IMG/VR virus record: IMGVR_UViG_3300023184_000002
Span: 1-60,292 of that record
Strand: one strand, 5' to 3'
Origin: a virus
Lineage: Duplodnaviria; Caudoviricetes
Length of the DNA stretch: 60,292 nucleotides
Positions 26,423-43,318 of this stretch are shown here, piece by piece (the stretch's first letter is position 1; each line of letters starts with the position of its first letter). The position numbers and the translations under genes are program-made. Below the pieces are notes generated by a model that ran no database searches, was not told the DNA's origin, and saw only the letters and a list, made by a program, of their open reading frames with translations.

Positions 26423-26428
26423 GGTTAA

Positions 26429-27199
26429 TTAAGCACCTTTCTCGTTTAGGTATTGTGCGTACAATGACGGCTCGGCTGATGCAATGTCAGCAAAAGCCTG
26501 TTCAAATGTGTTTGCTTCACCAGCAGAAACCATGGACTTAGCCATTGATTCCATCTGTGAGAAAGCATTTCCCGTATTGGCTGAAGTGCGACCAATTTCG
26601 GCAAAAATGTTTGCTGATTCAGCCTGAGCGTTAACACTCTCAAGAACTGCTTCAACAGATTTTGCTAGAACTTCATCGGTTTCTGCCAACTTACGAAGGG
26701 CAGGTCCAACATTTTCTGCATCTAGTGAAAGGTGTGACCATGAGCGAGCCTTAGCAACTGCCTCTGCATCTGCACGGGCATCACGCTCTGACTTTAAAAC
26801 GGCTTCAACTTCTGTAGCCTTAGCAACTGCTTCTTCTGCTTGCTTACGCAAAACTTCAAAAGCCTTCTGCACAGGCTCTGGGGCTGATTTGATTACTTCT
26901 TCATCGGTTTCATCAGCAGGAGCCTCAACTTCTGCGTCAACCTCTGTTGCTTCCTCAAGTTCAGCAATTCTTTCTTCTGCCTTTTGAAGCAAATTCATTG
27001 CTTCTTCAAGACGGGTTTCAATGGTTTCCGACATTGATTCCTCCTGTTTGATAACGGATGATTCAAGGAGTTCGTTAACAGATTCAGTAGAAGCAGATTT
27101 CATAACCAACCAACCATCATGCAAATGTGCAGGACGGTCAACGCCACTGGTTTCCTCAATGTCGAGATTAACCATTTTGCGAGTTGTTGTACGAGCCAT
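26429..27199 (-). CDS. Capsid scaffolding protein
   Basis: EETSGVDRPAH N-terminus, acidic coiled coil, C-terminal PSLYAQY; many hydrophobic-x-K-[SA] sites. Confidence 0.75.
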   Translation of the reverse strand: MARTTTRKMVNLDIEETSGVDRPAHLHDGWLVMKSASTESVNELLESSVIKQEESMSETIETRLEEAMNLLQKAEERIAELEEATEVDAEVEAPADETDEEVIKSAPEPVQKAFEVLRKQAEEAVAKATEVEAVLKSERDARADAEAVAKARSWSHLSLDAENVGPALRKLAETDEVLAKSVEAVLESVNAQAESANIFAEIGRTSANTGNAFSQMESMAKSMVSAGEANTFEQAFADIASAEPSLYAQYLNEKGA

Positions 27200-27302
27200 A
27201 ACATCCTCTGTTCTGAACATGCAGAATTAACTGCAAATCTTGACTTGCTCAAAATTAACACAAATCAATTACACTGAGGGTTTGACTTTGGGCGTGTCGG
27301 AT

Positions 27303-27497
27303 TTAACGACTCTGATAAAAACCAGTAGATGAACCGTGTTTAGAAACTTTGGTTGCACCCGTAATTACTCTTTTAGTTGCACCATTACCAATACGCAAAT
27401 CTAAAGTAGTTTGATTAGTTACACCAGTAACAATGGCATGATACACACGACCAGATTCACGATAACGAACTGAAGTGCCAACTTTAAAAATTTGCAT
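27303..27497 (-). CDS. Small SH3-like hypothetical protein (start MQIFKVG)
   Basis: Start overlaps the dps stop; FKVGTSVRY...AIVTGV. Confidence 0.55.
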   Translation of the reverse strand: MQIFKVGTSVRYRESGRVYHAIVTGVTNQTTLDLRIGNGATKRVITGATKVSKHGSSTGFYQSR

Positions 27498-27994
27498 TAC
27501 ATTCCCAAACTTGAACGAAGTTGCCAATCCCATTTTTTGTGCATGTCAATGCGTTCAGCAAGAAAATTAGCAATACCCTGCTCATTAGACGAGTTTGCAG
27601 AAGTGAAAGCCATGTTTAATGTATTAATCAGTTGAAGGTTTGCCTTCTGCAAATCTGATGCCATAGAACGGGGGTCATCAGCAGAACCAATAGTGGTTTC
27701 AGGCAAAGTTCGGTAAGCAATAAAATCAGACAACTTAAAAGGTGCATCCACCCCAAGTTTCAACATGTTTTCAGCCATAGGGTCAATTGAACTGTAAACA
27801 TCTTCATAAATTTCTTGAAAAAGTTCATGGTACTGCTGGAAATTAATGCCTTTAACATTCCAATGAAATCCGTGGGCACGGTGATAAAAAGTCACCACAT
27901 CAGCCAAAGTTGTACGCAAAAGCGAAGCAACATCAGCAACTGATTTATTCATAGCCCCAAAAGGAACATAATCATTATCGTTAGTCAGAAACAT
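27497..27994 (-). CDS. dps: Dps / ferritin-like DNA-protection protein
   Basis: HGFHWNVKG..FQQYHELFQEIY....D.MAE...HKKWDWQLRS Dps signature. Confidence 0.9.
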   Translation of the reverse strand: MFLTNDNDYVPFGAMNKSVADVASLLRTTLADVVTFYHRAHGFHWNVKGINFQQYHELFQEIYEDVYSSIDPMAENMLKLGVDAPFKLSDFIAYRTLPETTIGSADDPRSMASDLQKANLQLINTLNMAFTSANSSNEQGIANFLAERIDMHKKWDWQLRSSLGM

Positions 27995-28760
27995 CTTCGT
28001 CAGACACCTTCAAATCTTTTTTGGGCTTCTTTTTTTGCCCACCCATAACAGTATCCACATGAACAGTGTTCACTGTCGGACCCGACACGGTAGAAGTTCC
28101 ATCTTCTTTAGCAACTGGTAAATCAACTTCAAGACGCTGGGCACGACCACCAATTGAATAACCCATCAACTTGCCAGCCTTAACCATTTCCCAAGCCCAT
28201 GGTTCCCAAACAACACCAAGAAAAACAGTGTCTTTAGGAAAAGTAACATCTTCCATGGTTCCATCAGATTTTTGCATAGGAACTGAAACTTCGTAAGGCC
28301 ACGCCATGACTTCAACCCATTCACCAGCCACAACATCTTTATTGTGCTGAAGTCGGATTCGGCGGTCATCTTTACGCACATAATCCCAAACCGATTTTTG
28401 CAACTCTTCAGAACTTGTCCATTCACCATGAGCATCAACACGGTCAGGAACATACATTGGGCCTAAAGTGTATCGGTCTTCATTAACAGCCTTTGAAACT
28501 AAAGACATTTTTTGTACAGATTCTTCAGCATACTTGTCAAAAAATCCTTCATCATAAAGAGTTGAAACATCGTAATCAGCATTGTCCCATTCGGCAGGAA
28601 TAGCCATAACAATGTTTGAATTTTTTAAACTCTGATAAGTAGATTCTAAACTTTTCCATGCTTGCAAAGATTCGGCATCGGTAATGTATTGACTATCATT
28701 TTCCTTTATACCAGCCTGAACTTCCTGTGACATTAGTTCAAGAGTGCGACTATCAAGCAT
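27981..28760 (-). CDS. XkdF-like prohead serine protease
   Basis: YVPDRVDAHGEW...RLQH...FLGVVW...WEMVKAGKLMGYSIGG. Confidence 0.85.
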   Translation of the reverse strand: MLDSRTLELMSQEVQAGIKENDSQYITDAESLQAWKSLESTYQSLKNSNIVMAIPAEWDNADYDVSTLYDEGFFDKYAEESVQKMSLVSKAVNEDRYTLGPMYVPDRVDAHGEWTSSEELQKSVWDYVRKDDRRIRLQHNKDVVAGEWVEVMAWPYEVSVPMQKSDGTMEDVTFPKDTVFLGVVWEPWAWEMVKAGKLMGYSIGGRAQRLEVDLPVAKEDGTSTVSGPTVNTVHVDTVMGGQKKKPKKDLKVSDEDVSD

Positions 28761-30793
28761 TACTTACCTCCATTCTGTTTTAAAAATTCAGCATACCGAG
28801 AATCCAAATCCTCAACGCTAGTTTTATCACTTGCTTTGTTTACAAATGTTTTCCACAAATCATTATTAACAATTCTAATTGTACCACCACGGGAAGCAGT
28901 TGCAATCAATTCAGCAGGGGCACCTTCGGGACGAGTATTGTGATTAGTATCAAATAACACAAAATTATCAAACTGAGTAGCCATCTGAGGAATAATCGCT
29001 GAAACAGATTTATGATTATTCAAAAAATTGGGTGCAGGAACAAGACCACGATTAGGGTCATCTACAGACCTTTGCATGTTTTGTTTCCAAGCCAAATCAA
29101 TACTTGCACTTACATAACAACCATTAACTTTGTAACCAGCGTTACGGGCTTGTAGAATTTTTTTATTCAAACTGCTTGCACTTGAATTTCCAGTACCATC
29201 CAAGAAAACATCTTTACCAGAAGCAATAGCGGCCGCTTGAATTGATTTGCCAAGAATTGAAGATTCTTCATGTGTCCAACCAGCCACATCTGCTTTTCTA
29301 CCAGCATCTAAAAACACTTTAAAATCTGGCAATTTTGCTTTAATTTCGTCAGCATCAATTTTTACAGCCATGCCTTCTGCTGGCAAAGAAACTCCAGAAC
29401 TTTTAGCCTGTTCTAATGTTGCGGTTTTCTTTTGAATAGTTCCTTTACCAGAACCACCACCGCCACCCATCATAGTAAAAGTAGGGTCAGAAGATTTAGG
29501 AACACCTTGCAATGCTTCTGCAATAAGTTTATCATGCAACTCTTGGCGTTCAGGAGTTAACTTGTAACCACCGTGACCATCATCCATTAAATAATGCCAT
29601 AAACCAGAAGTCGAAGCAGTAATAGTTTCGCCACCAACTTCAATTGATTGCGGTTTACTTAAAACTTCAGGACGGTTACTGCCATAACCCCAATCATGAG
29701 TAGATAAATTTCCTTTAGCCCAAGCCCCATGCGAACTCTGGTCATGCTGACCAGCAAGATGTTTCATTAAAGGAATTCCATTTACCCAAGGAAGTGGGTC
29801 AACTAGAAGACGGCGGAACTGACGTTTATTTCCATTTAAACCATCAAAAAAACCTGCATCATTAACGATGGCTTCAGAAACATGTAAATTAAATAATTCA
29901 TCAGTGCTTGTTTTAAATTCAGTCAAAGTTGTGTGCAAAGCATTATGACGAGCCAAAACTTCTGGCAATTTTTGAGCATCAGGATTAGTGCGTATTAACT
30001 CGGCACCAGCATCATAACCTTCATTGTAATTCAAACGAATAGTGCGTTTATTCATAAATGAACCAATTTTTTTAAAATCAGATTCACTAACAGAAGAGGT
30101 TGTATGCGACCAAAGACCGTGGCTACGCTGGTCATGCTGACCTTGCAAATGTTTAGACATGCCATTTAATAAATCTTCAGGAATTACCCAAAACTTGCAC
30201 AAAGCCATGTGGTCAATTTGACCTTCAACAATCTCACAACCGCCACCGCCTTCATAAAAAATGCAATTGGCACACATCAAACCCTCATCAACAAACGGGT
30301 TATCCTCCATGTAATGTGCCCCGTTAGCACCGCAACCTTTATTAAACTTGCCAACGGTTTCGGTTAAAGATTCCAAAAATTCATAAATTGCAGATTGGGT
30401 TTCATTTAGTGCATCTTCAGGTTCAGGGTCGTTCATGTTCATTGGGGCATCTTTAGCCACCGCATCAAACTTTAAGGTGTAACCATCAACAGTCAAAATA
30501 GTGCTTTTAGAAACAGATTCAGGATAACCCAACTCGACATTGACCGTATCAATTACATCAGAAGGAATGCCATCAAACGCTTTACTTACAGCAACATTGT
30601 TTTCAACGCCAATTTCAATAACAGCCCGATTCCACTCATCGCCATTATGCCCATGGTCTAAACCACGAACCAACAACTCCGTTGTAACAAGATGGTGGGC
30701 TTGAACTTTTACAGAGTCAGAAACATCAGCATGCAACGACTTATGCAATGCTTCCAAATCAACATTACTTAAATTAGTTAAATCAAATGACAT
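28760..30793 (-). CDS. Tagged polyprotein F: HiPIP-like Cys4 domain, short tagged module, tagged zeta-toxin-family P-loop kinase
   Basis: CANCIFY...CEIVEGQI...CKFW; 2 tags; MGGGGGSGKGT, IDADEIK, HEESS, LDGTG; start MSFDL after SD GGAGGAG. Confidence 0.8.
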   Translation of the reverse strand: MSFDLTNLSNVDLEALHKSLHADVSDSVKVQAHHLVTTELLVRGLDHGHNGDEWNRAVIEIGVENNVAVSKAFDGIPSDVIDTVNVELGYPESVSKSTILTVDGYTLKFDAVAKDAPMNMNDPEPEDALNETQSAIYEFLESLTETVGKFNKGCGANGAHYMEDNPFVDEGLMCANCIFYEGGGGCEIVEGQIDHMALCKFWVIPEDLLNGMSKHLQGQHDQRSHGLWSHTTSSVSESDFKKIGSFMNKRTIRLNYNEGYDAGAELIRTNPDAQKLPEVLARHNALHTTLTEFKTSTDELFNLHVSEAIVNDAGFFDGLNGNKRQFRRLLVDPLPWVNGIPLMKHLAGQHDQSSHGAWAKGNLSTHDWGYGSNRPEVLSKPQSIEVGGETITASTSGLWHYLMDDGHGGYKLTPERQELHDKLIAEALQGVPKSSDPTFTMMGGGGGSGKGTIQKKTATLEQAKSSGVSLPAEGMAVKIDADEIKAKLPDFKVFLDAGRKADVAGWTHEESSILGKSIQAAAIASGKDVFLDGTGNSSASSLNKKILQARNAGYKVNGCYVSASIDLAWKQNMQRSVDDPNRGLVPAPNFLNNHKSVSAIIPQMATQFDNFVLFDTNHNTRPEGAPAELIATASRGGTIRIVNNDLWKTFVNKASDKTSVEDLDSRYAEFLKQNGGK

Positions 30794-30830
30794 TTGAACT
30801 CCTCCCCGAAAGAATAGCAAAAAAAATCAA

Positions 30831-30935
30831 CTATTCAGGTTTTGTCGGCTCAAGCAATTCTCTGGGTTTCATTCGTTCAGGAATACAATCAGGGTCAATA
30901 GGGTCAATGTTTTCAACTATTAAATAATCATCCAT
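30831..30935 (-). CDS. 34-aa acidic micro-ORF (MDDYLIVENIDPIDPDCIPERMKPRELLEPTKPE)
   Basis: Translated by hand; overlaps the stop of 30928..31770 and fills the gap; weak SD GAAGGTG. Confidence 0.4.
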   Translation of the reverse strand: MDDYLIVENIDPIDPDCIPERMKPRELLEPTKPE

Positions 30936-31770
30936 TTAAAACACCTTCTTGTACATAGAAATCACGCAAACCAGCACCTAACTCTGAACCCCAATAATGG
31001 TCAGCAAGCGTAACAAAATTTTGAGCAAACTCAACACCGTGGGCCGCATGAGGATTTTCTTCACTAATAGCCGTAGCGTAATGAGCAATTTCATGCAAAA
31101 GAGTGCTTTCGCTAAAACTGTAATGTGAATCTATTTTGAACTCGCTTGTGGTTTTTTCACGACCAGTACCGCGATTAATAATAACGCCAAACGCATAAGA
31201 ACCAGATAAAGTCATTGAATTAGAAGTTTTAATTTCTAAAGTTTTTCTTAACAAATTTCCACTACCAAAATTTTCAACAAACCAAGGGTCATCAATGACA
31301 GTAGTAATGTACTTTTTAACTCCAGATAAAGTGCCATTTAAATTTTTTTTACCCAAATCAGAAACAATAAATTTATGTGATTCTCTAGCCCAAACAGTGT
31401 GGGCTTTTCTGTAATCTTTAAACGCTCTCACATAATCATCTCGTGATTCAAAATCACTGCTTTTTGGTGCTTGTGGTTGATTTTTTCGCATTTCTTCGTA
31501 ATGGTCTTTACCCATTACGCTTTCTTTAAACAAGGCTTCAGCACCATAAATTTTATTTTGCAAAGGGTCGTATTTTTGTTTTCGCAAATCTAACATTTCT
31601 CTGGTCGTCAAACTGTGACCACCTTTAACAGCATTTAAATGTGTGCCCTGTGCCCAACTGCCATGGCTAGATTGGTCATGCTTGCCTTGCAAATGTTTTT
31701 CAACTTTAACACCATGTTTAACGCCCAAATCGGGGTAAACCACATCAAAAGTTACATCATCTAAAATCAT
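30928..31770 (-). CDS. Tagged protein E: HExxH zinc metallopeptidase-like
   Basis: KHLQGKHDQSSHGSW tag; LLHEIAHY...AAHGVEF. Confidence 0.75.
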   Translation of the reverse strand: MILDDVTFDVVYPDLGVKHGVKVEKHLQGKHDQSSHGSWAQGTHLNAVKGGHSLTTREMLDLRKQKYDPLQNKIYGAEALFKESVMGKDHYEEMRKNQPQAPKSSDFESRDDYVRAFKDYRKAHTVWARESHKFIVSDLGKKNLNGTLSGVKKYITTVIDDPWFVENFGSGNLLRKTLEIKTSNSMTLSGSYAFGVIINRGTGREKTTSEFKIDSHYSFSESTLLHEIAHYATAISEENPHAAHGVEFAQNFVTLADHYWGSELGAGLRDFYVQEGVLNG

Positions 31771-34754
31771 GCAACAGACACCTCAAACACCCCATTGCCA
31801 CCATCTTGATAAGTAAACAAATCCAAAACATTAGCCTGTTTCTCTAAACCTTCGTAGCGTAACAAGTATTTCCAAGTTGCCAAAAATGGCAAATTATGAC
31901 CACCATCACCTGCACCGCGTAGCGACCAATTTCCTTCAAGAATGTGCGAAACCTCATGCAACAAAACAAACTGGCTAATACCTGTAGGTTTGTAAAGTAG
32001 TACGGGAATGTTTCCGCCATGTAAAGGATGACCTTCTGCAACATCACCAGCCGTAATTCCAGCCTCAATACCGTCAACTAAGTATTCATTGTTTGTATCA
32101 GGAACCGCTTTCCAAACTCTTTTACCGTAACCGTATTTTTCAAAAACATGGTCAACATAAGCCACAATTTCTTGTTTATCAGTAAAAATGTGTCCTTGCC
32201 CAACTGCTTTTAAAGGTGCTGAATCAAGGCATAAACCCGAAGCAAACTCAATTTGTTTATCATCAGGGGCACCCGTTGGAACAACATCGCTCCAATCCGT
32301 ACTGTCTTTCCAAGGTATAGCGACTCCACCCAAATTTTTTGGTTTGTGAACAACGCCACCAGTTTTCGCCCAAGAACCATGGGAACTCTGGTCGTGCTGA
32401 CCTTGAAGGTGTTTAATTACATCATTTACACCAATAACTTGAACTCGCATTAATTTAACACTCTTGGTCACAAAATCTGTAGATTTAACACCCTGCCAAC
32501 CACCACTTAGAATTTGTTCCCCAAGCGTGTAATCTTTCCATCTTCCTTCTTGAAAAGGGTCGGTGGTATTGCTAGTAGTTGTATCAGATACAACATTTAA
32601 CACTTCATAAGGTTTTGGATAATTAGCAACAACATCACCTTCAAATCTGTCAGATAAATTTTGCAGTGCTTGAACATTTTCTGGCTTAATCAATGCTGGA
32701 TGGCTATAAGTGTAGATTTGGTTTCCCACTTGAACTTTTGCTGGATTATTTGTTGGCGTAACTTCATAACTAACCCTTGGTGGGCGTAACAAAACTTTTA
32801 TTTGGCGTTTTAAATGGTCCATAGAATCACGAAAATCGGGGTGACTAACATCCCAATCAAATCCAAAACTTTGCGAAGCCCAAGCAGAAGAACCATCAGA
32901 AACAGCAAACACACGAATGTTATTTAAACCCAACTCACGGGCAATTTGTTCAGATTGTTTATGAAATTCTTTACCCAAACCGTTACGCCGAAGTGCATCA
33001 CCAGCACCGTATTGTGTTGTGTCACCTTGCCAATTACCAAGAGTAAATCCAACTAAATCCATGGTTTTAGTTTTTGTATCAATGTCCCGTTGCCACTCAC
33101 CAGCAGGATTGCCTTGAGCATCAGTAACAGTACCTTTAACGGAAATTAGTGAACCATTTTTTTCAATAGAGCCAACATGAACTGACATTGATTTGCCATT
33201 AGAAGTTAATGTTTTTTCAAATAAAGATTTAATGTGTTCATCAGAATGTGCCCATGAACCGTGTGAACTCTGGTCGTGCTGACCTGCAAGATGTTTAAAA
33301 AAATCAGAATCAACAGGAACCTGAACAATTACTGAGGCTTCGGCAACTTCCCGTAAATCTTTTCCGCCCAAGCCATAATTTCCTCGTCCGTCATCTGATT
33401 CAACGGTTTCGGGGATGAGGCTATGTTTATAATTTCCTTTTTCGACTGTTCCACCAGTACCTCCTGTTTGAATCTCGTCAAAGTTTACGACATCCCAAAT
33501 ACTAATTTGGTTACGCCTTCTACCCAACGACATTGCTTGCTTCTTACTAACAATTTTGTCCGTAACATCCAAATGAACTTGTTGCTGGTCTTTTGGTATT
33601 TCAACCGTTACACCATTAACCGTTTTGGTTGTTTCGTGCCACACACCAAGATAAGCCCTACCAGAACCCAACTCTGATTTGTTCTTAATCAAAAACGCAC
33701 CGAGAATTTTGGCTCCCTTTTTCTCGTTAAAGAAATCTGATGCCGTGACTACAGTGCCAAACTTGTCACTGTTTCGAGATACCATGTAGCCATCTGGAGG
33801 CAGTGAGCCGTCTGTTAACTTGATTGATAAACCACCGTTTTCGGCTACTTGCGACAGCACATCATGAACGACTTCTGGTGCAACTTCGCTGTTAAACCTG
33901 CGTCCATGAGTTGATTGGTCGTGTTGACCTGAAAGATGTTTCTCAACTTCGGTTGATTTAATCTTAGCCTTTAACACCGCAATGTCAAATGCCAACATTT
34001 TTTTCATAGATTGTTTTACATCAGCACCCAAAGGAATGGAAGAAATACCAACAGCCTTATTCCAAGCCAAAACCACATCCACCAACTGCTCTTGTGGCAT
34101 GTCAACACGCAAAGCCTTTAATTTAATGCCTTTATGCTTAGGGGAAAGCCCAAGAAAAAGACCAGCGGCCCAACGATGATGACCATCAATAACATAATCA
34201 TCACTAGAAATAGTAATAGGAGTATCGTCAACCCCTTCTTTTTTCATCTTACGAAAAATTTTGCCAGATTTAGTAGCAGAAATTTCAGCCTGAATAGGGT
34301 GCAAACCAAAAGGCGTAACATCAACCAAATCAACTCGAACACCACGGGCTTGCATAGCCTTAATAAAAGCCTCTTGAGTATCGGGGGGAATCTGAGGCAT
34401 GTGGTCGCGCATAATGCCCAAATTGTCTTTAGTAAAATACTGCGTACCAAGGATTTCCAAATTAGTTAAATCAGGATTATCGGTACGGTCAGCCATAGCA
34501 TCCAACCATGCAGGAGCATCAATAGGGCTAACAATTCCCTCTTTACCAGCCACTACATTGTCATAAGCGGTTTGAATGGGATGTGGATAAGGATTACCTT
34601 CAGCAGTATTTTTACGGTCAACTGCTTGCCCATGATGACCAGACCAATTGCCGTGCGTTGCTTGGTCATGTTTGCCTTGCAAATGTTTAATCAAGACAGC
34701 ATCAGAAGATTCAACCACCCCAATAAATTTGGCGAGCCGTGCAATGCGTGACAC
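31767..34754 (-). CDS. Tagged polyprotein D: ParB/Srx-like, unknown domain, GNAT-like, HExxH peptidase
   Basis: 4 tags; VIDGHHRWAA; YLGVW...VHLDV...NQISIWD; LRRNGLGKEF; LLHEVSH...GHNLPF; GTG start with GGAGG. Confidence 0.8.
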   Translation of the reverse strand: MSRIARLAKFIGVVESSDAVLIKHLQGKHDQATHGNWSGHHGQAVDRKNTAEGNPYPHPIQTAYDNVVAGKEGIVSPIDAPAWLDAMADRTDNPDLTNLEILGTQYFTKDNLGIMRDHMPQIPPDTQEAFIKAMQARGVRVDLVDVTPFGLHPIQAEISATKSGKIFRKMKKEGVDDTPITISSDDYVIDGHHRWAAGLFLGLSPKHKGIKLKALRVDMPQEQLVDVVLAWNKAVGISSIPLGADVKQSMKKMLAFDIAVLKAKIKSTEVEKHLSGQHDQSTHGRRFNSEVAPEVVHDVLSQVAENGGLSIKLTDGSLPPDGYMVSRNSDKFGTVVTASDFFNEKKGAKILGAFLIKNKSELGSGRAYLGVWHETTKTVNGVTVEIPKDQQQVHLDVTDKIVSKKQAMSLGRRRNQISIWDVVNFDEIQTGGTGGTVEKGNYKHSLIPETVESDDGRGNYGLGGKDLREVAEASVIVQVPVDSDFFKHLAGQHDQSSHGSWAHSDEHIKSLFEKTLTSNGKSMSVHVGSIEKNGSLISVKGTVTDAQGNPAGEWQRDIDTKTKTMDLVGFTLGNWQGDTTQYGAGDALRRNGLGKEFHKQSEQIARELGLNNIRVFAVSDGSSAWASQSFGFDWDVSHPDFRDSMDHLKRQIKVLLRPPRVSYEVTPTNNPAKVQVGNQIYTYSHPALIKPENVQALQNLSDRFEGDVVANYPKPYEVLNVVSDTTTSNTTDPFQEGRWKDYTLGEQILSGGWQGVKSTDFVTKSVKLMRVQVIGVNDVIKHLQGQHDQSSHGSWAKTGGVVHKPKNLGGVAIPWKDSTDWSDVVPTGAPDDKQIEFASGLCLDSAPLKAVGQGHIFTDKQEIVAYVDHVFEKYGYGKRVWKAVPDTNNEYLVDGIEAGITAGDVAEGHPLHGGNIPVLLYKPTGISQFVLLHEVSHILEGNWSLRGAGDGGHNLPFLATWKYLLRYEGLEKQANVLDLFTYQDGGNGVFEVSVA

Positions 34755-34816
34755 AAAACCTCCTGAAATACTAGATAAGAATACCTCAGAAGCATTACCT
34801 CAAAAGGTCAACTCGC

Positions 34817-35053
34817 TTAATTATCGGCAGGGTCAATGCTGTAAAAAGGTAATTTCATAAGATTATCCATAAGTTCAGGTGAATAAGCAGTAAGTTTTTT
34901 GCCACCAATTGCTTCAGAATACATTTTATCAAAATCTAAAGATTGTTCAGGGGTAGGATTTTCGGGATAAAAGCCAGCAACATTTTTATACTTTAAAACC
35001 CAAGCATCATAAACGGAACTCATAGTTGCCATTTTTGTATCTCTATTCATCAT
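34817..35053 (-). CDS. Small untagged protein inside the effector block
   Basis: 78-aa ORF overlapping the stop of polyprotein C. Confidence 0.55.
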   Translation of the reverse strand: MMNRDTKMATMSSVYDAWVLKYKNVAGFYPENPTPEQSLDFDKMYSEAIGGKKLTAYSPELMDNLMKLPFYSIDPADN

Positions 35054-38000
35054 AAATCCCTTTACTTATAATCTGCCTAGGTGCAACATTTAATTTCTTT
35101 TTATAATGGTATCTTTGATTTGATAAAATGCTTTTTCCAAGCCACATGGTCAAAGCATTTCCCTGCCCATCTGTGCCATCGCCGTAACCAACCATTGCAA
35201 CATCATAAGGAGTTGGGAAATCTGAAGCCAAAGAATCCCCATTTAACCGAGTAATCATAGTTTCAATGTCGTCCCTAACTGGTTTATTTTTTGGTTCATT
35301 TGGAATAACAAATAAACGGTCAGTTAAATCTTTTCTTACATTTCGCCAATCTTCTGGATGGCTTCCCGACCAATCGTAGCCCATCTTTGCCCATGTATAG
35401 GCACCATTCCAAGCCGTATCTAAAGTAATGGCATTGAACCCGTGGCTGATGTAATAATTTTCTGATTGATTAATAAAAGCGTTTCCAAAACCAGTATTTT
35501 GGTATTGAGATTCCCAAATTTGTAAAACATCATGTGAAACAACTCCAGTGCTTGTGTTTAAAGTTCTTTCAAATTCACCAATTTGGTCGTCAAGTTGATT
35601 AAACAAACTACCTTCTACTTTAATTAAACCATCATTTAAATCAACTTCAACATTCAAAATCCTGCTTTTAATAGTGTCATCATGTCCTGTTTTATCTGTG
35701 TACTCGTAATTCATGTTATAAATTTCTTTAAGGCCTGGTTTTATTCTGGTTGCTATGTCGTCACCAGCATCCAATAAAATTCTTCCAGCGTGTCTTTGAT
35801 AAAAATCATCTGTCAACTGTTCGGTAAGAAGCGAATCCCCTTGATGTTGAACATCACGAGCGTCCAAATAATTTTGTAACTCTTGTCGCCAATAAGCATT
35901 GCCTTTAGTATCAGCCCAAGCCCTAGCCCTATCTGCTATCTCAACAGAAGCATCTGATAACCCTTGAATCCAAGTCAACCAAGCCACGCTTGGGCCTTTA
36001 TCTTTCATACTCAAAATCATTTGTTGGCGTTCGGCACCCCATTGACCATACTTACCCTCAGCAACAGGTCCACCGTTTGCCCAATTACCATGCGAACTTT
36101 GGTCGTGCTGACCAGCAAGATGCTTAATTAAATTTAAAGGTGGTACAACAAAAATTGTTTTAGCAACAGGTTTATCTAAGCCTTCACCAAAATCACAAAT
36201 GTCTTCAACCGTGTAAACAGTATTGTCCTCATCAGTTTTGCTTTTCAATACAGGATTTTGCCCGTATTCGGATTGTCTATCAAAACTCCATTGACAATCA
36301 TAAGCATAAGTTTGAGTTGCCTGATTGCCACTTTTGCCTTCACTCAAAAACCAATCAGCAAACGCTTCAGCAAAACCTTCCTTGGAATTTGTTTGCCCGT
36401 ATTTACTTAAACCCAACTTCCCGTCAACAGCCCTATTCCAAAGGCTTTGAGTTGAAGCGGAACTTGCATCATTATTTATTTGATTAATTTGCATTTGACG
36501 AGCATGTCCCCATTCATGAGCCAACCAGTATTGCCCTTGATGATTTACATTTTGGTAAGATTGAGTAAAACGCCCAAATTTTCTTTTGTTTGGTTTATCA
36601 AAAAATCCAGTTGAAGCAACATAAATTTGTACACCCATTTTTTCAGCAACTTTATCCCAACCACCAAGATGTAATCCTTTTACACCTTCTGGAACAGGAT
36701 TGCCACTTGCAGTATCAGCATTCAATAAGGCTTCATCCCCAAAAAACATTCTAACAACAGTATTTTTAGGCAAAGGAGCATGTTGACCCAACTTATTTAA
36801 TTGAAATAAAACAGTTTCAACTTGTTTTTGAATTTCTGGAGTGTATTTTGTATTTTGACTGGGGTCGCTACTTGATGTTCCCTTTAAAGATTGCCAATAA
36901 GAATTAAAATTAGCAACAATTCTGACATCATGGATAGTAGTTTCAAACGCCCATGGCAAAGATTTATCATCTACTGGTTTCCAGCCAGCAATCGGTTTAA
37001 ATTTTTTAGACCATTCATGGTTAGCCCATGAGCCGTGAGTTGACTGGTCGTGCTGACCTGCAAGATGCTTTTGTAAACCACCAAACTCAATAACAATTGG
37101 AGGAACATTAGAATCAATAGATTCTATAACATGAAAACCTGCAATAGATTTGTTCATCAAATTTTTTGCCAAATTAGCAAAATCTAAATGATAAAAAATC
37201 TTTTTATAATTGGGATTATCTTTATCTAACTCCCAAGCAGTAAACATTTCAGCAAAAAATTCACGATGATTAGTTTTACCGTATTTTGAAACTATAGGGC
37301 TAGAACTAAGTTGTTCAAAATCTGCTGTTGCTTGAAAATAATACCTTTGGTCAACAGCATGACCAAACTCGTGAATAATTGTTGCTTGTAAACCGTTATA
37401 GTCATTGCCAACATACTCGTTACCAGAAAAACTTGAAGTAGAAACAAACTCGTCATGAATTACTTCTTTCCAAGTTTTTGCTGTTCCGCTACCTAAACGG
37501 GAAAAAACTGCTGGATTTAAAACAATTACACTGCCTTTTGGTGTGTCATGCCAATTCACATCAGGAATCCACTTTTCAAACAAAGAAGTGATTTCATCTG
37601 CTGTGGGAGCAAATAATTTTTCTTCATTAAATTGTGATGCCCTGTATTTTCTTCGTGCATTACCCTGACTACCAATTGAAGTTACAGTTTCACCACCAAC
37701 GCCCACCCGATTTTCAAGGTCAATAATAAAAGAAACATCGTGCATTGGATACTTTGAAAGCAACTCATTCATGTAACCAATTGCTTCATTTTTTCTTGCA
37801 ACAATGTCTTTGGCGTATTTAATGTTTTGTAACCCTGAGTCATCAAAGCGTGGAACATAAAATTTGCTCCCACTTGGATGTTCGTAACAATCGTATCGCC
37901 CAACAACTTTGGTTAATTCAAAAGTCCCGTGTGCCCAATTACCGTGTGAACTCTGGTCATGTTGCCCTGACATGTGTTTGGTAAAAGCGTCAACAACTGT

Positions 38001-38165
38001 CCAAGTGCCAACTTTTTGCCATTTATCAAATAAACCAACAGTGCTGGTTCTGCCATTAGTTTGGCGTAAATACCCGTATGGATAACCGTCAGCGTCAACG
38101 GAATCAAAAATTAACTCGGCTCCGTCAGCCCTTACAGCGTAAACACTACCTTTGGTTAGTTCCAT
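35043..38165 (-). CDS. Tagged polyprotein C: two zincin (HExxH) peptidase-like modules and a GNAT-like module
   Basis: 3 tags; HEFGH...SKYGKTNHREFFAE; HEWGH...SKYGQTNSKEGFAE; YQNTGFG...GAYTWAKMGYDW. Confidence 0.8.
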   Translation of the reverse strand: MELTKGSVYAVRADGAELIFDSVDADGYPYGYLRQTNGRTSTVGLFDKWQKVGTWTVVDAFTKHMSGQHDQSSHGNWAHGTFELTKVVGRYDCYEHPSGSKFYVPRFDDSGLQNIKYAKDIVARKNEAIGYMNELLSKYPMHDVSFIIDLENRVGVGGETVTSIGSQGNARRKYRASQFNEEKLFAPTADEITSLFEKWIPDVNWHDTPKGSVIVLNPAVFSRLGSGTAKTWKEVIHDEFVSTSSFSGNEYVGNDYNGLQATIIHEFGHAVDQRYYFQATADFEQLSSSPIVSKYGKTNHREFFAEMFTAWELDKDNPNYKKIFYHLDFANLAKNLMNKSIAGFHVIESIDSNVPPIVIEFGGLQKHLAGQHDQSTHGSWANHEWSKKFKPIAGWKPVDDKSLPWAFETTIHDVRIVANFNSYWQSLKGTSSSDPSQNTKYTPEIQKQVETVLFQLNKLGQHAPLPKNTVVRMFFGDEALLNADTASGNPVPEGVKGLHLGGWDKVAEKMGVQIYVASTGFFDKPNKRKFGRFTQSYQNVNHQGQYWLAHEWGHARQMQINQINNDASSASTQSLWNRAVDGKLGLSKYGQTNSKEGFAEAFADWFLSEGKSGNQATQTYAYDCQWSFDRQSEYGQNPVLKSKTDEDNTVYTVEDICDFGEGLDKPVAKTIFVVPPLNLIKHLAGQHDQSSHGNWANGGPVAEGKYGQWGAERQQMILSMKDKGPSVAWLTWIQGLSDASVEIADRARAWADTKGNAYWRQELQNYLDARDVQHQGDSLLTEQLTDDFYQRHAGRILLDAGDDIATRIKPGLKEIYNMNYEYTDKTGHDDTIKSRILNVEVDLNDGLIKVEGSLFNQLDDQIGEFERTLNTSTGVVSHDVLQIWESQYQNTGFGNAFINQSENYYISHGFNAITLDTAWNGAYTWAKMGYDWSGSHPEDWRNVRKDLTDRLFVIPNEPKNKPVRDDIETMITRLNGDSLASDFPTPYDVAMVGYGDGTDGQGNALTMWLGKSILSNQRYHYKKKLNVAPRQIISKGIYDE

Positions 38166-38167
38166 AA

Positions 38168-39352
38168 TTAATACTCTACCACCTTAATTCCCTTGGGAAC
38201 AAGGGGACTAATGTCATCAAAACTATCTGATGGAATGTAAATAGATTCAACATCACTCAACTTAACACCATCATGAATCTGGGCTTCAAAATAAGAACCT
38301 TCATTGAGATACCCAATTTCATAAGTATCATTATTCCAACCCTCATCTTTAGCAATGTTGTACAAAATCCTGTCAGATGCTCGCCAAGCATCAAAAGGAG
38401 TTATTTCTTTTTGAGTCATAGAAATAGGTACGCAACCAGTTGACAACGAATCCCCAACCGACATAGTTGTCCGAGATTTAACATTATCTTTAAACACAAC
38501 CCGAATAGCCCCATACTGCTCAGGTCCATTAATCAAAATGCTTTCATGAAAATCATCTTCAGCCACATAGCCATAAATAGGTCTTTTAGAAACAGGCTCC
38601 GACAAAGGCATACTTTGAGAACGCAACTCACCAGCGATACGACCAATTTTGCTGTACGCACCATTGCTTGTACCTGTTTCAAATTGTGTTTTAAACCTTG
38701 GGTCATCACTTTTCAATAATGTAATAAATGACTTTTCATCCATAGCCTGACAAACTTTTCCATGTTCTTGCAAAGATTTTAAATCATCAGCAATAAGACT
38801 TTGATAATCCAACTCAGAAGAATCAAAACTAGCAAAAAGGGCTTGTTTAACAACTTCATCAGATACCCTACGAAGCAATGCTTCATACATCACAATTGGA
38901 TAATCTTTTCCAGTTACAAAACTAGGATTGATAACTCCTTTAAAAGTGTTATCAAAAACTCCACCAGTTTTGAGAAAAACAGCATCACGAGGATAAGCAT
39001 CTTTAACTTGCTGTTGCAACTCTTTTCCAAGAGCAGACCTAGCAAAAGTATCACCATGAAGAATTTTAACTAAAAAATCTTCTGAACGACTACCACCAAA
39101 ACCACCTGCACCGCTATCTATTTTGTCAGCATAAGTTTTAGCCAATTTTTTAACAGCATTTTTAAAAGTTGTTGTTTCGGCAAAATCGTTAACTGAACCA
39201 TGTGCCCAATTGCCGTGCGTGGATTGGTCATGCTGACCCAAATAATGTTTTAATAAAAGGGAACGCCCAAGAATTTGTTCTGCTCGTAAACGATGACGCA
39301 AAGCCTCAGCACTATCAACTTCAGACAAGAAAGAATCAGTAAACCTATCCAT
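38168..39352 (-). CDS. Tagged protein B: DUF3626-like, probable ADP-ribosyltransferase fold
   Basis: KHYLGQHDQSTHGNW tag; RFKTQFETGTS, RPIYGY, QYG, RTTMSVGDS, YFEAQIHDGV. Confidence 0.7.
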   Translation of the reverse strand: MDRFTDSFLSEVDSAEALRHRLRAEQILGRSLLLKHYLGQHDQSTHGNWAHGSVNDFAETTTFKNAVKKLAKTYADKIDSGAGGFGGSRSEDFLVKILHGDTFARSALGKELQQQVKDAYPRDAVFLKTGGVFDNTFKGVINPSFVTGKDYPIVMYEALLRRVSDEVVKQALFASFDSSELDYQSLIADDLKSLQEHGKVCQAMDEKSFITLLKSDDPRFKTQFETGTSNGAYSKIGRIAGELRSQSMPLSEPVSKRPIYGYVAEDDFHESILINGPEQYGAIRVVFKDNVKSRTTMSVGDSLSTGCVPISMTQKEITPFDAWRASDRILYNIAKDEGWNNDTYEIGYLNEGSYFEAQIHDGVKLSDVESIYIPSDSFDDISPLVPKGIKVVEY

Positions 39353-42314
39353 TTTCCTGTCCCGTCACTAAAAGGTCTAACACAATCCTAGTTTTATCCA
39401 ACCTTTTTGCTCCCATAACCACAAAAGTAGTATTCGGGGCAATAACGAACTCACCTTCTTCATCATTACCCATCGTTGCACCATGAGTACCTGCTGGCAT
39501 GTGAATGTTTGAAAAAACTGTTGCAGATGCTTTAAAAGAATCATTAACACTTTGATGCACGCTATTAGGAGCAGAAGTTGATGTAAAACCTTTTGCTTCA
39601 AAAGTTTTTCCAACCAACCCATTAATGTCTTCCTCAGACATTGTAGAAACTTGTTGTCTAAAAAGGCTTGCCCCTGAACTCCACCTAGTAACCGTCAAAT
39701 CTTGTGTTGTTTCTGTTTCATACAAAGCATTTTTCAAAGAATCAATTTGAGCAATTCCTTGTTCTTTAGGAATTTGTTCATTGTAAATAATTCTAACTGT
39801 GTCATCAATGTTGCCACTACGAAGGTAATCATTCATCCATGAGTACCCAAAGCCAACATAATTATTTCTAGCATCCATTGTTGTTGAATCAAGTCTTGAA
39901 AGGTCTAAGGCTGGAAGGTCATTCAACGAAGCAGATTTAAAACTTTCAGCACCTGCCCAATTGCCGTGCGTAGATTGGTCATGTTGACCTTGCAAGTGTT
40001 TAGACACTGCATCAGGGTTTTGAACAATTAAAGCACCAGCATTTAAAACAACCATTTCTCGGTCAGGCAAACTTCTATCGGCTGGGTCATAAAGCATTGG
40101 ACTGTCATTAATTGCGTCATAGCCCATTGCCAAAGCCATAAGATTTCTAGTTGTTAATTTATCAGTAAAAAACCAACTTGTTGAAAAATCTGTTAAAGCC
40201 GTATGACGAAGTAAACTAATTTGAGATTCTAGTAATCCACTATTTGCCAATACCCAGTTTGCTTCAGAAGAAGGAATAGTTAAAATTTTTGCATTAGGTT
40301 TAAAAGCCATTTTAACTATTTGTTTTTCATCACCTTTATAACCCCAAATTTCAGCCTCTTTTTTCGTATGCGCACCATAAAGACCAATTCCATTTCTACC
40401 CATAGAAATGTAAGGCAATTTTGAAGCCATAAATTGTTTGATTTTATCTTTAGCAGATAATCTAATGTTGTCTGAAGTTTCCAAATCAAAAGCAGAACCT
40501 TGCTGAAAAGTTCGCCAAAATTCCATACCCTGTGAAGTATCACCAAAAGTAGGTTTACCAGTTTTGCCTGTGGCTTTTAAAACATCTTGCAAAGTTTTAC
40601 GCCAAACATCAAGGCTGTCGTATGGTTTATTTGCGTTAATTATTGACGCAAGTTGCTGAATGCTAATTTCATTTGACCCATCACCATCAGCCCAGTTGCC
40701 ATGCGAACTTTGGTCATGTTGCCCTGCGAGATGTTTAACAACACCAGCCCAACCCTCGGCATCTCTTGTCAAAGAAAAAGAATGCTCAATTTTAATTCCA
40801 TTTGGAGCATAACTTCGAGCCAAATTAAGCATTGCCGTGGCAACTCCTTGGCGTTGAAATTTTGGCTCAACAAAAACATTTTCAATTGAAGCATCTGGAA
40901 AGTTTGTATTATGAGAAGCGTTTAAATAACCTATTTGTCTTTTTCCACCAGAAAAAGCAACATAAGCCTGAGTTTCCATGTCAATACCGCCATCGGAAGA
41001 CCGAAAATAATTATCTTGCATTAAATAAATTGTTTGTCCAGATGGGCTGGAGTATTCTGCTGTTACTGAATTTATGAAATCATTTGTTTCATTTTTATTT
41101 GGAAGAATAACTTTTACATTTGAAATTCTTTGTTGTATTTCCTGTTCTTTAGGGGAACGGTCATTACTGTGTGCCCAATCGCCGTGTGAACTCTGGTCAT
41201 GCTGACCTGCAAGATGTTTTTGAACTAAATTTTCTTGAATAAACGGACGGTCATTAAACAACCAATAAAACTTGTTGCCCAAATCTTGACTTTTAGATTT
41301 AGCAATTTCATCTGAAACAACATGAGGTTCAATCATTTTGACTTCAACCACGGTAAATTCTTTGTCTGGTTGTTTAGCCCATAAAGTTACATTGTAATCG
41401 CCCCATCTGTCTTGCCCAGCACCTCGGTCAAATACAAATTTAACATCAGGTGATTCAAATGAACTCAAATCACCCGAAACCAAACTTTCATAAAATGTTT
41501 TTGCTTTTGCTTGGTATTGTTCTTTAGGAACACCTTCAATAACATTTGCACCATAATCCCACATTTGATACCAAGTTTCATCAACATTTCCATTTGCATC
41601 AACATGCTGACGCATTCTTGCACCTGCTGGAAATCTAGCCCAAAAAGGATGTTTAACTTTAGTTACACCAACAACTTCAAATTTTCCACTTGTAATAACT
41701 TCAGCATCTTGTTGAAACATTGCATCTTTAAATGCCCAGCCTTTAGCACCAGCCTGAATTTTTATTAAAACTGAATTATTTCCATTACCCCTACCAGTTG
41801 CATACCACTCGGCCGCACCTTGAGAACGAGTAGTAGATACTAAAGGCATGTCAATAACATCGCCAGCCTCAAGTTGAGTAAAATCTTGTTTTAACCCAGT
41901 TGTATCATCAGATTGTAAACCACGCCACAAAACAGGTTGGGGCTTACTATTTGCAATAGCCTTTAATAGTCCTTTAACTTCATTACGATTAGGGGCACCC
42001 CAACCACGCTCAAGCATGTATTCCAAATAACCACCTTTGTCGTAAGGAGTTTCTGGAACGGGCAAACCTAAAATTTGACATGCGTATTTGCGAAATAATT
42101 CAACAAATTGAGTTCCATCAGGGCCATGTTCCCAAGCGTATTGTGCCCTAGCAGTAAACCCACCACCATTGCGAGGACTAGGAGGAATTGGGTCTAAAGG
42201 ATTCCACGCACTTATTTCATGTGTAATGTTATCAGCCCAAGAACCATGAGTTGATTGGTCATGCTGACCAGCAAGGTGTTTATTTACGGGAACTACAACA
42301 TAAACAGATTTCAT
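39345..42314 (-). CDS. Tagged polyprotein A: ART, GNAT, ART-like and VIP2-type ART modules
   Basis: 4 tags; LWRG/VSTT/QDAEVI; VEPKFQRQGVATAML; GIGLY...GYDAI...VVLN; VTR/FTSTS/EGEFVI. Confidence 0.85.
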   Translation of the reverse strand: MKSVYVVVPVNKHLAGQHDQSTHGSWADNITHEISAWNPLDPIPPSPRNGGGFTARAQYAWEHGPDGTQFVELFRKYACQILGLPVPETPYDKGGYLEYMLERGWGAPNRNEVKGLLKAIANSKPQPVLWRGLQSDDTTGLKQDFTQLEAGDVIDMPLVSTTRSQGAAEWYATGRGNGNNSVLIKIQAGAKGWAFKDAMFQQDAEVITSGKFEVVGVTKVKHPFWARFPAGARMRQHVDANGNVDETWYQMWDYGANVIEGVPKEQYQAKAKTFYESLVSGDLSSFESPDVKFVFDRGAGQDRWGDYNVTLWAKQPDKEFTVVEVKMIEPHVVSDEIAKSKSQDLGNKFYWLFNDRPFIQENLVQKHLAGQHDQSSHGDWAHSNDRSPKEQEIQQRISNVKVILPNKNETNDFINSVTAEYSSPSGQTIYLMQDNYFRSSDGGIDMETQAYVAFSGGKRQIGYLNASHNTNFPDASIENVFVEPKFQRQGVATAMLNLARSYAPNGIKIEHSFSLTRDAEGWAGVVKHLAGQHDQSSHGNWADGDGSNEISIQQLASIINANKPYDSLDVWRKTLQDVLKATGKTGKPTFGDTSQGMEFWRTFQQGSAFDLETSDNIRLSAKDKIKQFMASKLPYISMGRNGIGLYGAHTKKEAEIWGYKGDEKQIVKMAFKPNAKILTIPSSEANWVLANSGLLESQISLLRHTALTDFSTSWFFTDKLTTRNLMALAMGYDAINDSPMLYDPADRSLPDREMVVLNAGALIVQNPDAVSKHLQGQHDQSTHGNWAGAESFKSASLNDLPALDLSRLDSTTMDARNNYVGFGYSWMNDYLRSGNIDDTVRIIYNEQIPKEQGIAQIDSLKNALYETETTQDLTVTRWSSGASLFRQQVSTMSEEDINGLVGKTFEAKGFTSTSAPNSVHQSVNDSFKASATVFSNIHMPAGTHGATMGNDEEGEFVIAPNTTFVVMGAKRLDKTRIVLDLLVTGQENG

Positions 42315-43318
42315 GCCTGTTCCCCCGAATACCTCATTTGACCAGTTTTAATCCACTCAGCATCATTCAAACCACGGTCAGGAGGCACCAGAAACGCTGT
42401 ACAGCGACAATGAGGATGAGCAGGTGGCATAAGTAGCCCATTGTCAAAAGCCATGTCCCAACGCACCTGAACTCCATTTAAAGGGGCACATTTATCGCAA
42501 GGGGGTCCACCTAAATTGTTTTTGTAAACTGTTTGCCATTGCTTCATTGAATCACCAGCAACCCAACCACCATCAACAGCCTGTTGCCAAGCCAATTGAC
42601 GACCCATGTTTTGAGCAATTTGAATTTCGGTACGGGCAATCATTGTGGCACGGGCACGAATCAATTTTTGACGGTACCTATCAGTCAATAAATCAGTTTT
42701 TTCAATTGCTTTTTCGTGTTTCAAACCTTGTTTTAACAAATTTTTGTAAGTGCGGTCATAAAATTTGTCAACTGCCTGTGCCCAACGAGGATGCAAGCCA
42801 ATAACTTGACGCAATTTTTTAGCCGTGTAAGGGACGGAAATTTCTTTACTAAAAGAATCGCTAATAATCTGACGAATTGCCAAACGCATTGAATCGTTAA
42901 TGGCTGTAACTAAACGCCCAGCCTGACGCTCTGCATACAAATCCGCTACAGGATTATGGATGTTAAAATTGAACTCACCATTGGTTCTACCCGTTAAAGT
43001 TTGTTCATTACCCCAATCGGATGTTGCTTGAATAATTGGCTGTATTTCTTGACCAGCAATAACACCAGCATGATTAATAACAGCCGTAATTGATTCTCTA
43101 ATAATCTGTTGAATTGCGTCAACATTAATTGTTAATAACGCTTGCTCCAGCAAATCGGGTTGCAGATTAATAATTGCTGAAGCCAACGCATCAGCATCAG
43201 CAACTCGCCCAGCCCGATACAAAGCATTACGGATAATGTTGTATAACTGCTCTTCAGTTACATTAAAAACTGGAGGTGCAGGTACCGAAGATTTGGCTTT
43301 CCTGACTAATGGCATCAA
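42311..43318 (-). CDS. MuF / SPP1 gp7-like minor head protein
   Basis: RATMIARTE, KQW, CDKCAPLNG, PPAHPHCRC; directly after the portal. Confidence 0.9.
   Translation of the reverse strand: MMPLVRKAKSSVPAPPVFNVTEEQLYNIIRNALYRAGRVADADALASAIINLQPDLLEQALLTINVDAIQQIIRESITAVINHAGVIAGQEIQPIIQATSDWGNEQTLTGRTNGEFNFNIHNPVADLYAERQAGRLVTAINDSMRLAIRQIISDSFSKEISVPYTAKKLRQVIGLHPRWAQAVDKFYDRTYKNLLKQGLKHEKAIEKTDLLTDRYRQKLIRARATMIARTEIQIAQNMGRQLAWQQAVDGGWVAGDSMKQWQTVYKNNLGGPPCDKCAPLNGVQVRWDMAFDNGLLMPPAHPHCRCTAFLVPPDRGLNDAEWIKTGQMRYSGEQA

Follow-up and report, generated by a model that had tools for sequence, protein, structure and literature searches.

In bacteriophage T4, the protein Alt and the internal proteins IPI-III are loaded into the prohead, trimmed by the protease gp21 at a site with the logo 'LIE' and injected together with the DNA (PMC9026906). 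The prohead protease gp245 of SPN3US, which was compared with that of T4, cuts many packaged proteins after the motif A-x-E and prefers Ser in the P1' position (PMC10052503), and the HK97 protease gp4 cuts gp5 at K103/S104 within an unstructured stretch (PMC10275583). Moreover, a survey of phage-type polyvalent proteins described chains of 2-15 unrelated conflict domains, such as GNAT, ADP-ribosyltransferase (ART), zincin and ParB-like domains, encoded next to or fused to MuF and portal proteins; these were predicted to be packaged and injected, and zincin metallopeptidases were proposed as their processors (Iyer et al., 2017; PMC5512222). We describe a head module in the virus record IMGVR_UViG_3300023184_000002, the whole of which (60,292 bases) is the window analyzed, in which six open reading frames (ORFs) between the genes for a MuF-like minor head protein and an XkdF-type prohead protease encode 15 modules, each starting with a conserved tag directly behind a hydrophobic-x-Lys site. 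Judged from sequence comparisons, these 15 modules are probably cut apart in the capsid by the phage's own head protease and then injected with the DNA.

The locus resembles Alt and the internal proteins of T4 in that the cargo comprises enzymes including an ADP-ribosyltransferase, in that the putative cut site combines a hydrophobic P3 with a charged P1 residue and in that a short leader ends in this site (PMC9026906). It differs in the position of the conserved element: in T4, a capsid targeting sequence of about 10 residues lies before the cut and is discarded, whereas here a 16-residue tag lies behind the proposed cut and would be kept; no likeness between the two was seen on reading, i.e., without a formal comparison. 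Furthermore, T4 uses separate small genes for each cargo protein and gp21, whereas here polyproteins chain the cargo, with Lys at P1 and a protease of the XkdF type. As the window protease belongs to another family, PF14550, and a gp21-like fold was found only in a separate lineage of tagged phages with Glu before the tag (E lineage, see below), the resemblance to T4 is one in working principle rather than membership by homology to gp21. In this respect T4 and the ejection proteins that giant phages process come closest to the locus. The window ART (39348-39998, minus strand), being a tagged module of a head-cargo polyprotein, has a setting like that of T4 Alt. ARTs of uncultured phages were read as toxins against eukaryotic grazers (PMC6802176); if the processing proposed here holds true, the ARTs of phages of this kind would be re-read as Alt-like injected effectors.

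With SPN3US the locus shares a head protease, a three-residue motif and several motif copies in regions to be removed, which in SPN3US are propeptides; the SPN3US enzyme differs in that it removes N-terminal propeptides from single proteins, with Glu in P1, no tag after the site and in the capsids of a giant phage (PMC10052503). In HK97 the head serine protease shares the fold class and cuts after Lys, but the substrate is the capsid protein's own delta domain, and neither cargo polyproteins nor tags are described for it (PMC10275583). In architecture the window cargo is a set of phage-type polyvalent proteins: it has the same types of domains, chains several unrelated effector domains in one polypeptide and is linked to the virion head genes for MuF and portal (PMC5512222). 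Term searches in the text of this survey gave no mention of a conserved junction tag, and the term 'prohead protease' occurs in a reference only (PMC5512222).

Tagged cargo modules between MuF and the protease

The six cargo ORFs span positions 28760-42314 and consist of 15 tagged modules and a single untagged one. The start of polyprotein A overlaps the stop of the MuF gene by 4 nt.

39345..42314, minus strand: polyprotein A (polyA), 989 amino acids, 4 tags; 12-residue leader MKSVYVVVPVNK and 4 tagged modules
38168..39352, minus strand: p394, 1 tag; 35-residue leader and a tagged module with a weak DUF3626 match
35043..38165, minus strand: polyprotein B (polyB), 1040 amino acids, 3 tags; 63-residue leader and 3 tagged modules
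31767..34754, minus strand: polyprotein C (polyC), 995 amino acids, 4 tags; 23-residue leader and 4 tagged modules
30928..31770, minus strand: p280, 1 tag; 25-residue leader and a tagged SprT-like zincin module
28760..30820, minus strand: p686, 2 tags; untagged Cys-rich residues 1-223, tagged module 224-353, tagged zeta-toxin-type P-loop kinase module 354-686

In polyA, residues 367-527 form a GNAT and residues 773-989 an ART module, and residues 13-366 and 528-772 have no family match. PolyB carries two zincin-like modules (HEFGH and HEWGH, with a weak ATLF match) and a third module without assignment. The first module of polyC is ParB-like (tblastn matches, phrog_2859) and its last one carries HEVSH, so that with p280 four HExxH modules are present in the cargo. 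The kinase module of p686 matches PF06414 (E 1e-19). The leaders of 12, 35, 63, 23 and 25 residues in five of the ORFs all end in hydrophobic-x-K, and p686 alone begins with an untagged module of 223 residues rather than with a short leader. The leader pattern MKSV[FY]V.PP..K is also present on stand-alone homologues. A tblastn search with p280 against phage records gave no match.

The Cys-rich N-terminal module of p686 (residues 1-223; 30152-30820, minus strand) matches phrog_2859 at profile positions 7-116. It is kept directly upstream of the protease in all relatives, and in one relative a module of this type is fused to the protease (L202:1651-3615).

The tag of the window has the consensus K-H-[LYM]-x-G-[QK]-H-D-Q-x-[ST]-H-G-x-W, from which junction 10 deviates with Arg in place of Trp. 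A search of all six frames with the pattern H..G.HDQ..HG returned exactly 15 copies, all on the minus strand and within the six cargo ORFs, and none elsewhere. Each copy is preceded by Lys (15/15), and the residue two positions before this Lys is V, L, F or M in every case (15/15). The first-pass annotation had listed these strings and described the hydrophobic residue as usual; all of the strings are present. The tag always heads a module and never terminates a protein.

42231..42287, minus strand: junction 1, VNK and HLAGQHDQSTHGSWA, polyA residues 10-28
41169..41225, minus strand: junction 2, VQK and HLAGQHDQSSHGDWA, polyA
40686..40742, minus strand: junction 3, VVK and HLAGQHDQSSHGNWA, polyA
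39951..40007, minus strand: junction 4, VSK and HLQGQHDQSTHGNWA, polyA, before the ART module
39200..39256, minus strand: junction 5, LLK and HYLGQHDQSTHGNWA, p394
37929..37985, minus strand: junction 6, FTK and HMSGQHDQSSHGNWA, polyB
37020..37076, minus strand: junction 7, LQK and HLAGQHDQSTHGSWA, polyB
36075..36131, minus strand: junction 8, LIK and HLAGQHDQSSHGNWA, polyB
34638..34694, minus strand: junction 9, LIK and HLQGKHDQATHGNWS, polyC
33891..33947, minus strand: junction 10, VEK and HLSGQHDQSTHGRRF, with Trp replaced by Arg, polyC
33246..33302, minus strand: junction 11, FFK and HLAGQHDQSSHGSWA, polyC
32364..32420, minus strand: junction 12, VIK and HLQGQHDQSSHGSWA, polyC
31648..31704, minus strand: junction 13, VEK and HLQGKHDQSSHGSWA, p280
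30104..30160, minus strand: junction 14, MSK and HLQGQHDQRSHGLWS, p686
29714..29770, minus strand: junction 15, LMK and HLAGQHDQSSHGAWA, p686, before the zeta-toxin-type module

Among the 15 copies the choice of synonymous codons differs freely; Ser, for instance, is encoded by AGT as well as by TCN. Selection therefore acts on the peptide rather than on a repeated DNA sequence, which rules out recent gene conversion and a function of the repeat as DNA. An AlphaFold2 model of polyA residues 750-989, based on 17 aligned sequences, resulted in a confident ART domain, while its residues 1-40, which comprise the pre-tag region and the tag, are without secondary structure (pLDDT 36-43). According to this model, the tag behaves as a disordered linear motif. 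Homologues of the ART module follow different upstream modules or only a 12-residue leader, and the similarity starts exactly at the tag. This shows that the unit of exchange is the tag together with its module, and that the piece upstream supplies its own hydrophobic-x-K end.

The prohead protease as candidate for the cleavage

The mechanism that we infer for packaging, for cleavage and the enzyme responsible, and for the tag after cleavage, starts from the six ORFs as head-packaged cargo built of cassettes, each consisting of a junction and a module. The junction would have two parts: the hydrophobic-x-Lys site would represent P3-P2-P1 of the XkdF-type prohead serine protease, and the disordered tag of about 16 residues, H-x2-4-[H/G]-D-Q-x-x-H-G-x-W-A, would be independent of the protease family. 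The scaffold, which the protease must remove, carries the same kind of site, i.e., hydrophobic-x-K followed by Ser or Ala. The polyproteins would be built into the procapsid, and the protease would cut after each junction Lys and at the sites in the scaffold. The single modules would then stay inside the capsid with the tag as new N-terminus and would be injected with the DNA, as are T4 Alt and the internal proteins.

27981..28760, minus strand: prohead protease, XkdF type, 259 amino acids, PF14550, the proposed cutting enzyme
26429..27220, minus strand: scaffolding protein, 263 amino acids, with 9 hydrophobic-x-K-[SA] sites

The protease matches PF14550 (Peptidase_S78_2) with 47.2 bits (cut-off 24; E 2.8e-12), its residues 86-211 covering positions 3-126 of the 126-position profile, and it is encoded between portal/MuF and scaffold/major capsid protein (MCP), as expected for a prohead protease. 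H111 (in DAHGEW), H139 and S202 (in GYSIGG) are invariant in 22 homologues and are candidate catalytic residues. No solved structural relative of the protease was found by sequence, and no published cleavage specificity was found for the XkdF-type (PF14550) family.

The scaffold supplies the first line of evidence. For each of the 76 window ORFs, the number of hydrophobic-x-K-[SAG] sites was compared with 2000 composition-preserving shuffles. The scaffold contains 9 sites versus 0.9 expected, a number reached in 0/2000 shuffles, and 12 of its 14 Lys residues have a hydrophobic P3; the earlier claim that it is full of such sites was thus borne out. Five ORFs had p<=0.05: the scaffold, the protease (4 sites versus 1.0; p 0.013), p686 (7 versus 2.8; p 0.017), the tape measure protein (13568-17053; p 0.046) and the ORF at 58064-58597 (p 0.023). 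No enrichment was found for the MCP (3 versus 1.3; p 0.14), for the polyproteins as wholes (polyA 3 versus 3.5, polyB 5 versus 3.5, polyC 5 versus 4.4), for p394 (2 versus 1.8) or for p280 (0 versus 1.3). The scaffold excess is a family trait: 45/48 scaffold homologues are enriched for K sites at p<=0.01, and among 978 scaffold Lys residues P3 is hydrophobic in 54% versus 23% in the background, with Ser enriched 3.3-fold at P1'. Some of the sites keep their position, and others are replaced by sites elsewhere in distant homologues, with the density maintained. The cultured Arthrobacter phage Edmundo, which has no tags, shows the same excess in the scaffold (8 versus 1.4) and the protease (5 versus 0.9).

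The second line of evidence is the residue before the tag, which is uniform within a lineage and differs between lineages: it is K in most, E in 6/6 tags of one phage, L in 6/6 (P0027) and Y in 4/4 (P0076). The third line comes from the E lineage, in which both features switch together. This lineage is unrelated to the window phage, is high in GC and has a different portal, and hydrophobic-x-E precedes 6/6 of its tags. As the IMG/VR contigs of this lineage end before the head genes, these were taken from a circularly permuted 43-kb metagenome contig (L203, L204). Its head protein of 731 residues is a protease-scaffold-MCP fusion: a domain carrying invariant His and Ser forms the N-terminal part, a helical region rich in Ala and Glu follows, and the capsid domain is Mu-gpT-like. 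When modeled (pLDDT 63 overall and 70-87 within the core), the N-terminal domain has T4 gp21 as best match (5jbl, E 2e-4, probability 1.0), followed by herpesvirus proteases. Cleavage after Glu, with a defined residue at P3, is what head proteases of this type carry out (PMC10052503; PMC9026906). Hydrophobic-x-E-[SAG] sites number 7 versus 1.5 expected in residues 1-230 (p 0.0005) and 4 versus 1.7 in residues 231-430, and the K version is not in excess in either part. Among homologous fusions, 16/18 are enriched for E sites at p<=0.001 and 0/18 for the K version, and in this family a conserved R-L-T-E|S closely precedes the MCP domain. A further tagged phage combines an HK97-type S78 protease (PF04586) and an HK97-type MCP with K-type tags. 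On the level of sequence, the covariation of the P1 residue at the tags with the scaffold motif and the protease type provides the strongest support for cleavage.

The strongest competitor, though an unlikely one, is that the whole junction including the Lys serves only to load the cargo into the capsid or to dock it, e.g., on MuF, portal or scaffold, and that the polyproteins are packaged and injected without cleavage or are cleaved at other places. Phages with three types of head protease (PF14550, PF04586 and the gp21-like fold) share the conserved tag, and therefore recognition by the protease alone cannot explain its conservation. The invariable position of the tag before a module and of the tagged ORFs after MuF also fits docking, and the N4 virion RNA polymerase is packaged unprocessed (PMC5512222). 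However, a single address per polypeptide would suffice, yet each module has one. Moreover, the lineage-wide changes between K, E, L and Y, with the other 16 residues constant, are hard to square with a fixed motif, and the scaffold part of the E lineage switches its motif in step.

It is quite improbable that the zincin-like modules, i.e., p280, two modules of polyB and one of polyC, cut the chains at the tags. Their number in the window and the published proposal for polyvalent proteins (Iyer et al., 2017; PMC5512222) speak for it, and the His-rich tag could sit near the metal site. However, in four related phages with 29 tags HExxH strings occur in the tagged ORFs only as HER[LI]H within the N-terminal module that bears no tag, so that no tagged module has a zincin motif, and in L145-type phages, which have tagged ART and other modules, no HExxH was seen on reading. 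Such a mechanism would also leave the match to the scaffold motif and the switch to E together with a gp21-like protease unexplained. As tagged relatives without zincin modules exist, the head protease is the best candidate for the cutting enzyme.

A comparably small probability is assigned to the possibility that the excess of hydrophobic-x-K-[SA] in the scaffold stems from amphipathic helical repeats like EAVAKA instead of cut sites and resembles the tag sites by chance. The scaffold indeed has helical character and repeated EAV-x-K-[AS] strings, and as shuffling destroys periodicity, a helix repeat would also beat the shuffles. However, these scaffolds contain more Glu than Lys, but only 1/48 homologues is enriched for hydrophobic-x-E-[SAG], the unrelated E-lineage scaffolds show the reverse pattern, and the sites change position while their density stays. 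In addition, SPN3US propeptides contain the motif of the protease in multiple copies (PMC10052503). Least probable is cutting only after injection, by a host protease or a self-cleaving tag using the junction Lys: many proteases could plausibly accept a disordered linker that exposes a Lys, and processing after injection was also considered by Iyer et al. (PMC5512222), but a host-directed site is not expected to track the scaffold motif of a phage, no known self-cleaving residue pattern was recognized and the middle His of the tag is dispensable.

Processing by the head protease is therefore the reading best supported by the lineage-uniform P1 residue, the match to the scaffold motif and the relatives without zincins, and in this core the first-pass annotation has good, though indirect, support; a general presence of second sites at module ends is not supported. 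The module-end sites that it listed (IAK-S, MNK-S, VLK-S, VTK-S, VEK-G and ISK-G) are all present, and in the window 6/11 internal tags have a site within 50 residues upstream (2.6 expected; p 0.018). Their general occurrence is contradicted by the relatives, as given below. The N-terminal sites fared unevenly: in MuF, hydrophobic-x-K-[AG] is found at residues 5-8 in 21/24 homologues, in Dps the site is kept in 4 close relatives only, and VSK-A of the protease is kept in 35/35 homologues. Within 30 or 60 residues after the tags there is no excess of sites. A second cut removing the tag was therefore set aside, and the tag would remain on the mature N-terminus, in agreement with what had been proposed.

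Several points weigh against cleavage by the head protease. The covariation rests on one E lineage, represented by three contigs of one phage type; the 18 fusion homologues are known from the fusion protein alone and not from the tags of their phages, and no genomic context was found for the L-type (P0027) and Y-type (P0076) proteins. A Lys kept in a binding motif that co-evolves with another partner would also result in lineage-uniform residues. In the phage with the S78 protease the junctions read GTK and SFK, and in a wide set of 149 tagged proteins (described below) the hydrophobic P3 is not universal (76%, with S in 41 cases). P1' is invariably His at the tags and Ser or Ala in the scaffolds, and the two classes of sites are therefore not identical. 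Only the scaffold excess survives correction for 76 ORFs. In relatives, 18/76 internal tags have a site within 50 residues upstream versus 19.7 expected (p 0.72). The conserved VSK-A of the protease lies inside the Pfam domain match (86-211) and may thus be structural, and it was set aside as proof of autoprocessing. Finally, among 50,697 phage records, tblastn with either the long or the short tag peptide (E<=10) returned nothing relevant, and no isolate with the tag was found in this collection.

Spread and variants of the tag

The viral collection was scanned with a degenerate DNA pattern encoding G-Q-H-D-Q-x-x-H-G-x-W, which identified 117 stretches, some of which have 7-10 copies. These stretches, together with loci around protease homologues, yielded 284 unique tag contexts from other contigs, in which the upstream residues had not been constrained. 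Lys occupies P1 in 274 of these contexts, Glu in 8 and Tyr in 1. At P3, V, I, L, M or F is found in 258 (91%) and T in 18; P2 varies, and Pro stands at P4 in 27%. The shorter form K-H-x-x-H-D-Q accounts for 83/284 contexts. A profile of the junction detected 1061 representative proteins at E<=0.001 among 1.84 billion; P0029, a high-scoring match, was rejected as false positive. In 149 representative proteins, 314/326 tags have K at P1. A homologue search with the tag region of p280 alone gave 3 candidates only. The family phrog_2859 of PHROGs, which has no function assigned, spans the tag at profile positions ~270-295.

P0015, a protein of 7059 residues with 20 tags, has Gly in place of the middle His in most of them, which is its commonest variant. 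The first-pass annotation had suggested that the His-rich N-terminus may bind metal or the ejection channel; that the middle His is dispensable counts mildly against a fixed three-His metal site. As further observations on these giant proteins, P0015, P0017 and P0018 have 20, 8 and 8 tags, respectively, spaced ~150-430 residues apart, and in P0018 T-K-S-L-K precedes every tag, placing the hydrophobic residue at P2 and not at P3.

In the window and the relatives examined, the tagged ORFs always follow MuF, and PF14550 adjoins the tags in 6/10 further tagged records, several of which are fragments. A scan of species-representative genomes for the long K-form revealed no credible prophage copy; the sole match, on a Phaeobacter contig, was on reading an out-of-frame chance match. 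No published description of the tag was found in the literature, and the literal motif strings matched no paper. New to the field would thus be a widespread, apparently undescribed junction tag placed after a cut site, chains of many cargo modules in which each bears its own tag, and a P1 residue that follows the resident protease.

As the tag is kept across three protease types, it has a role beyond protease recognition, most simply in cargo loading, retention or exit. MuF is the one head protein seen here that is common to the K and E lineages. One can tentatively imagine the tag as a portable, protease-independent address, written after the cut site of the resident protease and kept on every released enzyme, which would hold the cargo or guide its exit, e.g., by docking on MuF. 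If this possibility were true, cut site and tag together would constitute a general code, transferable between unrelated phages, by which any protein could be loaded into their capsids.

If cleavage by the head protease is true, this phage and about a thousand similar protein clusters would use a two-part grammar for injected cargo, consisting of a matched cut site and a 16-residue tag. This would explain how polyvalent proteins come apart, which the survey of 2017 left to zincin domains. Moreover, with the lineage-matched P1 residue, sequences alone would suffice to predict head protease specificity, and the junction would provide a testable recipe for packaging foreign proteins in phage heads.

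Neighboring genes of the head module

The head module lies on the minus strand in the order portal, MuF, six cargo ORFs, protease, Dps, scaffold, small head protein and MCP, and the gene order from portal to MCP also holds in relatives. Besides the genes given above, it comprises:

43324..44865, minus strand: portal protein, 513 amino acids, PF06074 Portal_Mu, E 4e-39
42311..43318, minus strand: MuF-like minor head protein, 335 amino acids, untagged, N-terminus MMPLVRK-A, PF04233, E 7e-9
27497..27994, minus strand: Dps/ferritin-like protein, 165 amino acids, N-terminal site AMNK-S, PF00210, E 2e-15
26030..26422, minus strand: small head protein, 130 amino acids, phrog_673, weak PF23982 match
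25039..26016, minus strand: MCP, 325 amino acids, lambda-E-like, phrog_1005, E 3e-101

The nearest isolates are Arthrobacter and Microbacterium phages, whose MCPs are 54-61% and whose protease domains are 52-66% identical to those of the window, which makes an actinobacterial host for the window phage a reasonable inference. For the proteases of Arthrobacter phages, the domain identity is 59-66%. A megablast search with positions 26000-46000 against phage records gave no match.

The Dps/ferritin-like gene is located within the head module (27497-27994, minus strand). In two relatives, the best Dps match lies within ORFs of 1006 (L128:2807-5827) and 798 residues (L133:7310-9706) upstream of the protease, and in the unrelated S78-type tagged phage a Dps gene (L206:12464-12994) lies beside the capsid gene. 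Dps may be a further packaged cargo.

Gene 18 of Edmundo (L001:14669-15781) encodes a protease with an N-terminal domain of 240 residues that contains two H-x-T-x motifs (HVTL and HITV), which we take to resemble those of a 2H phosphoesterase. In the annotation of sister records this domain is an RNA ligase, and it is joined to the protease by L-T-K|A. It looks like a cargo fused directly to the protease.

In the scaffold, residues ~15-42 (27095-27178, minus strand) read K-M-V-N-L-x-I-E-E-T-S-G-V-D-x-P-A-H-L-H-[DE]-G-W-L-V-M-K-[SA] and are nearly invariant in 19 aligned homologues. This N-terminus resembles the strand I-E-S-V-D-V-V-V-N-P-A-A-G-G that closes the protease domain of the E lineage, and it may have remained from a fusion of protease and scaffold.

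The otherwise tight head module has two gaps of ~280 nt, at 34755-35042 and 27221-27496, each of which holds one short ORF only (34817-35053, 78 residues, and 27303-27533, 76 residues, respectively). Directly upstream of the portal gene, genes for an S-adenosylmethionine (SAM) methyltransferase and a C5 cytosine DNA methylase (PF00145, E 9e-71) are found at 44890-46507 on the minus strand. A gene of the histone deacetylase family (PF00850, E 5e-51) lies at 53579-54508 on the plus strand, opposite to the structural genes.

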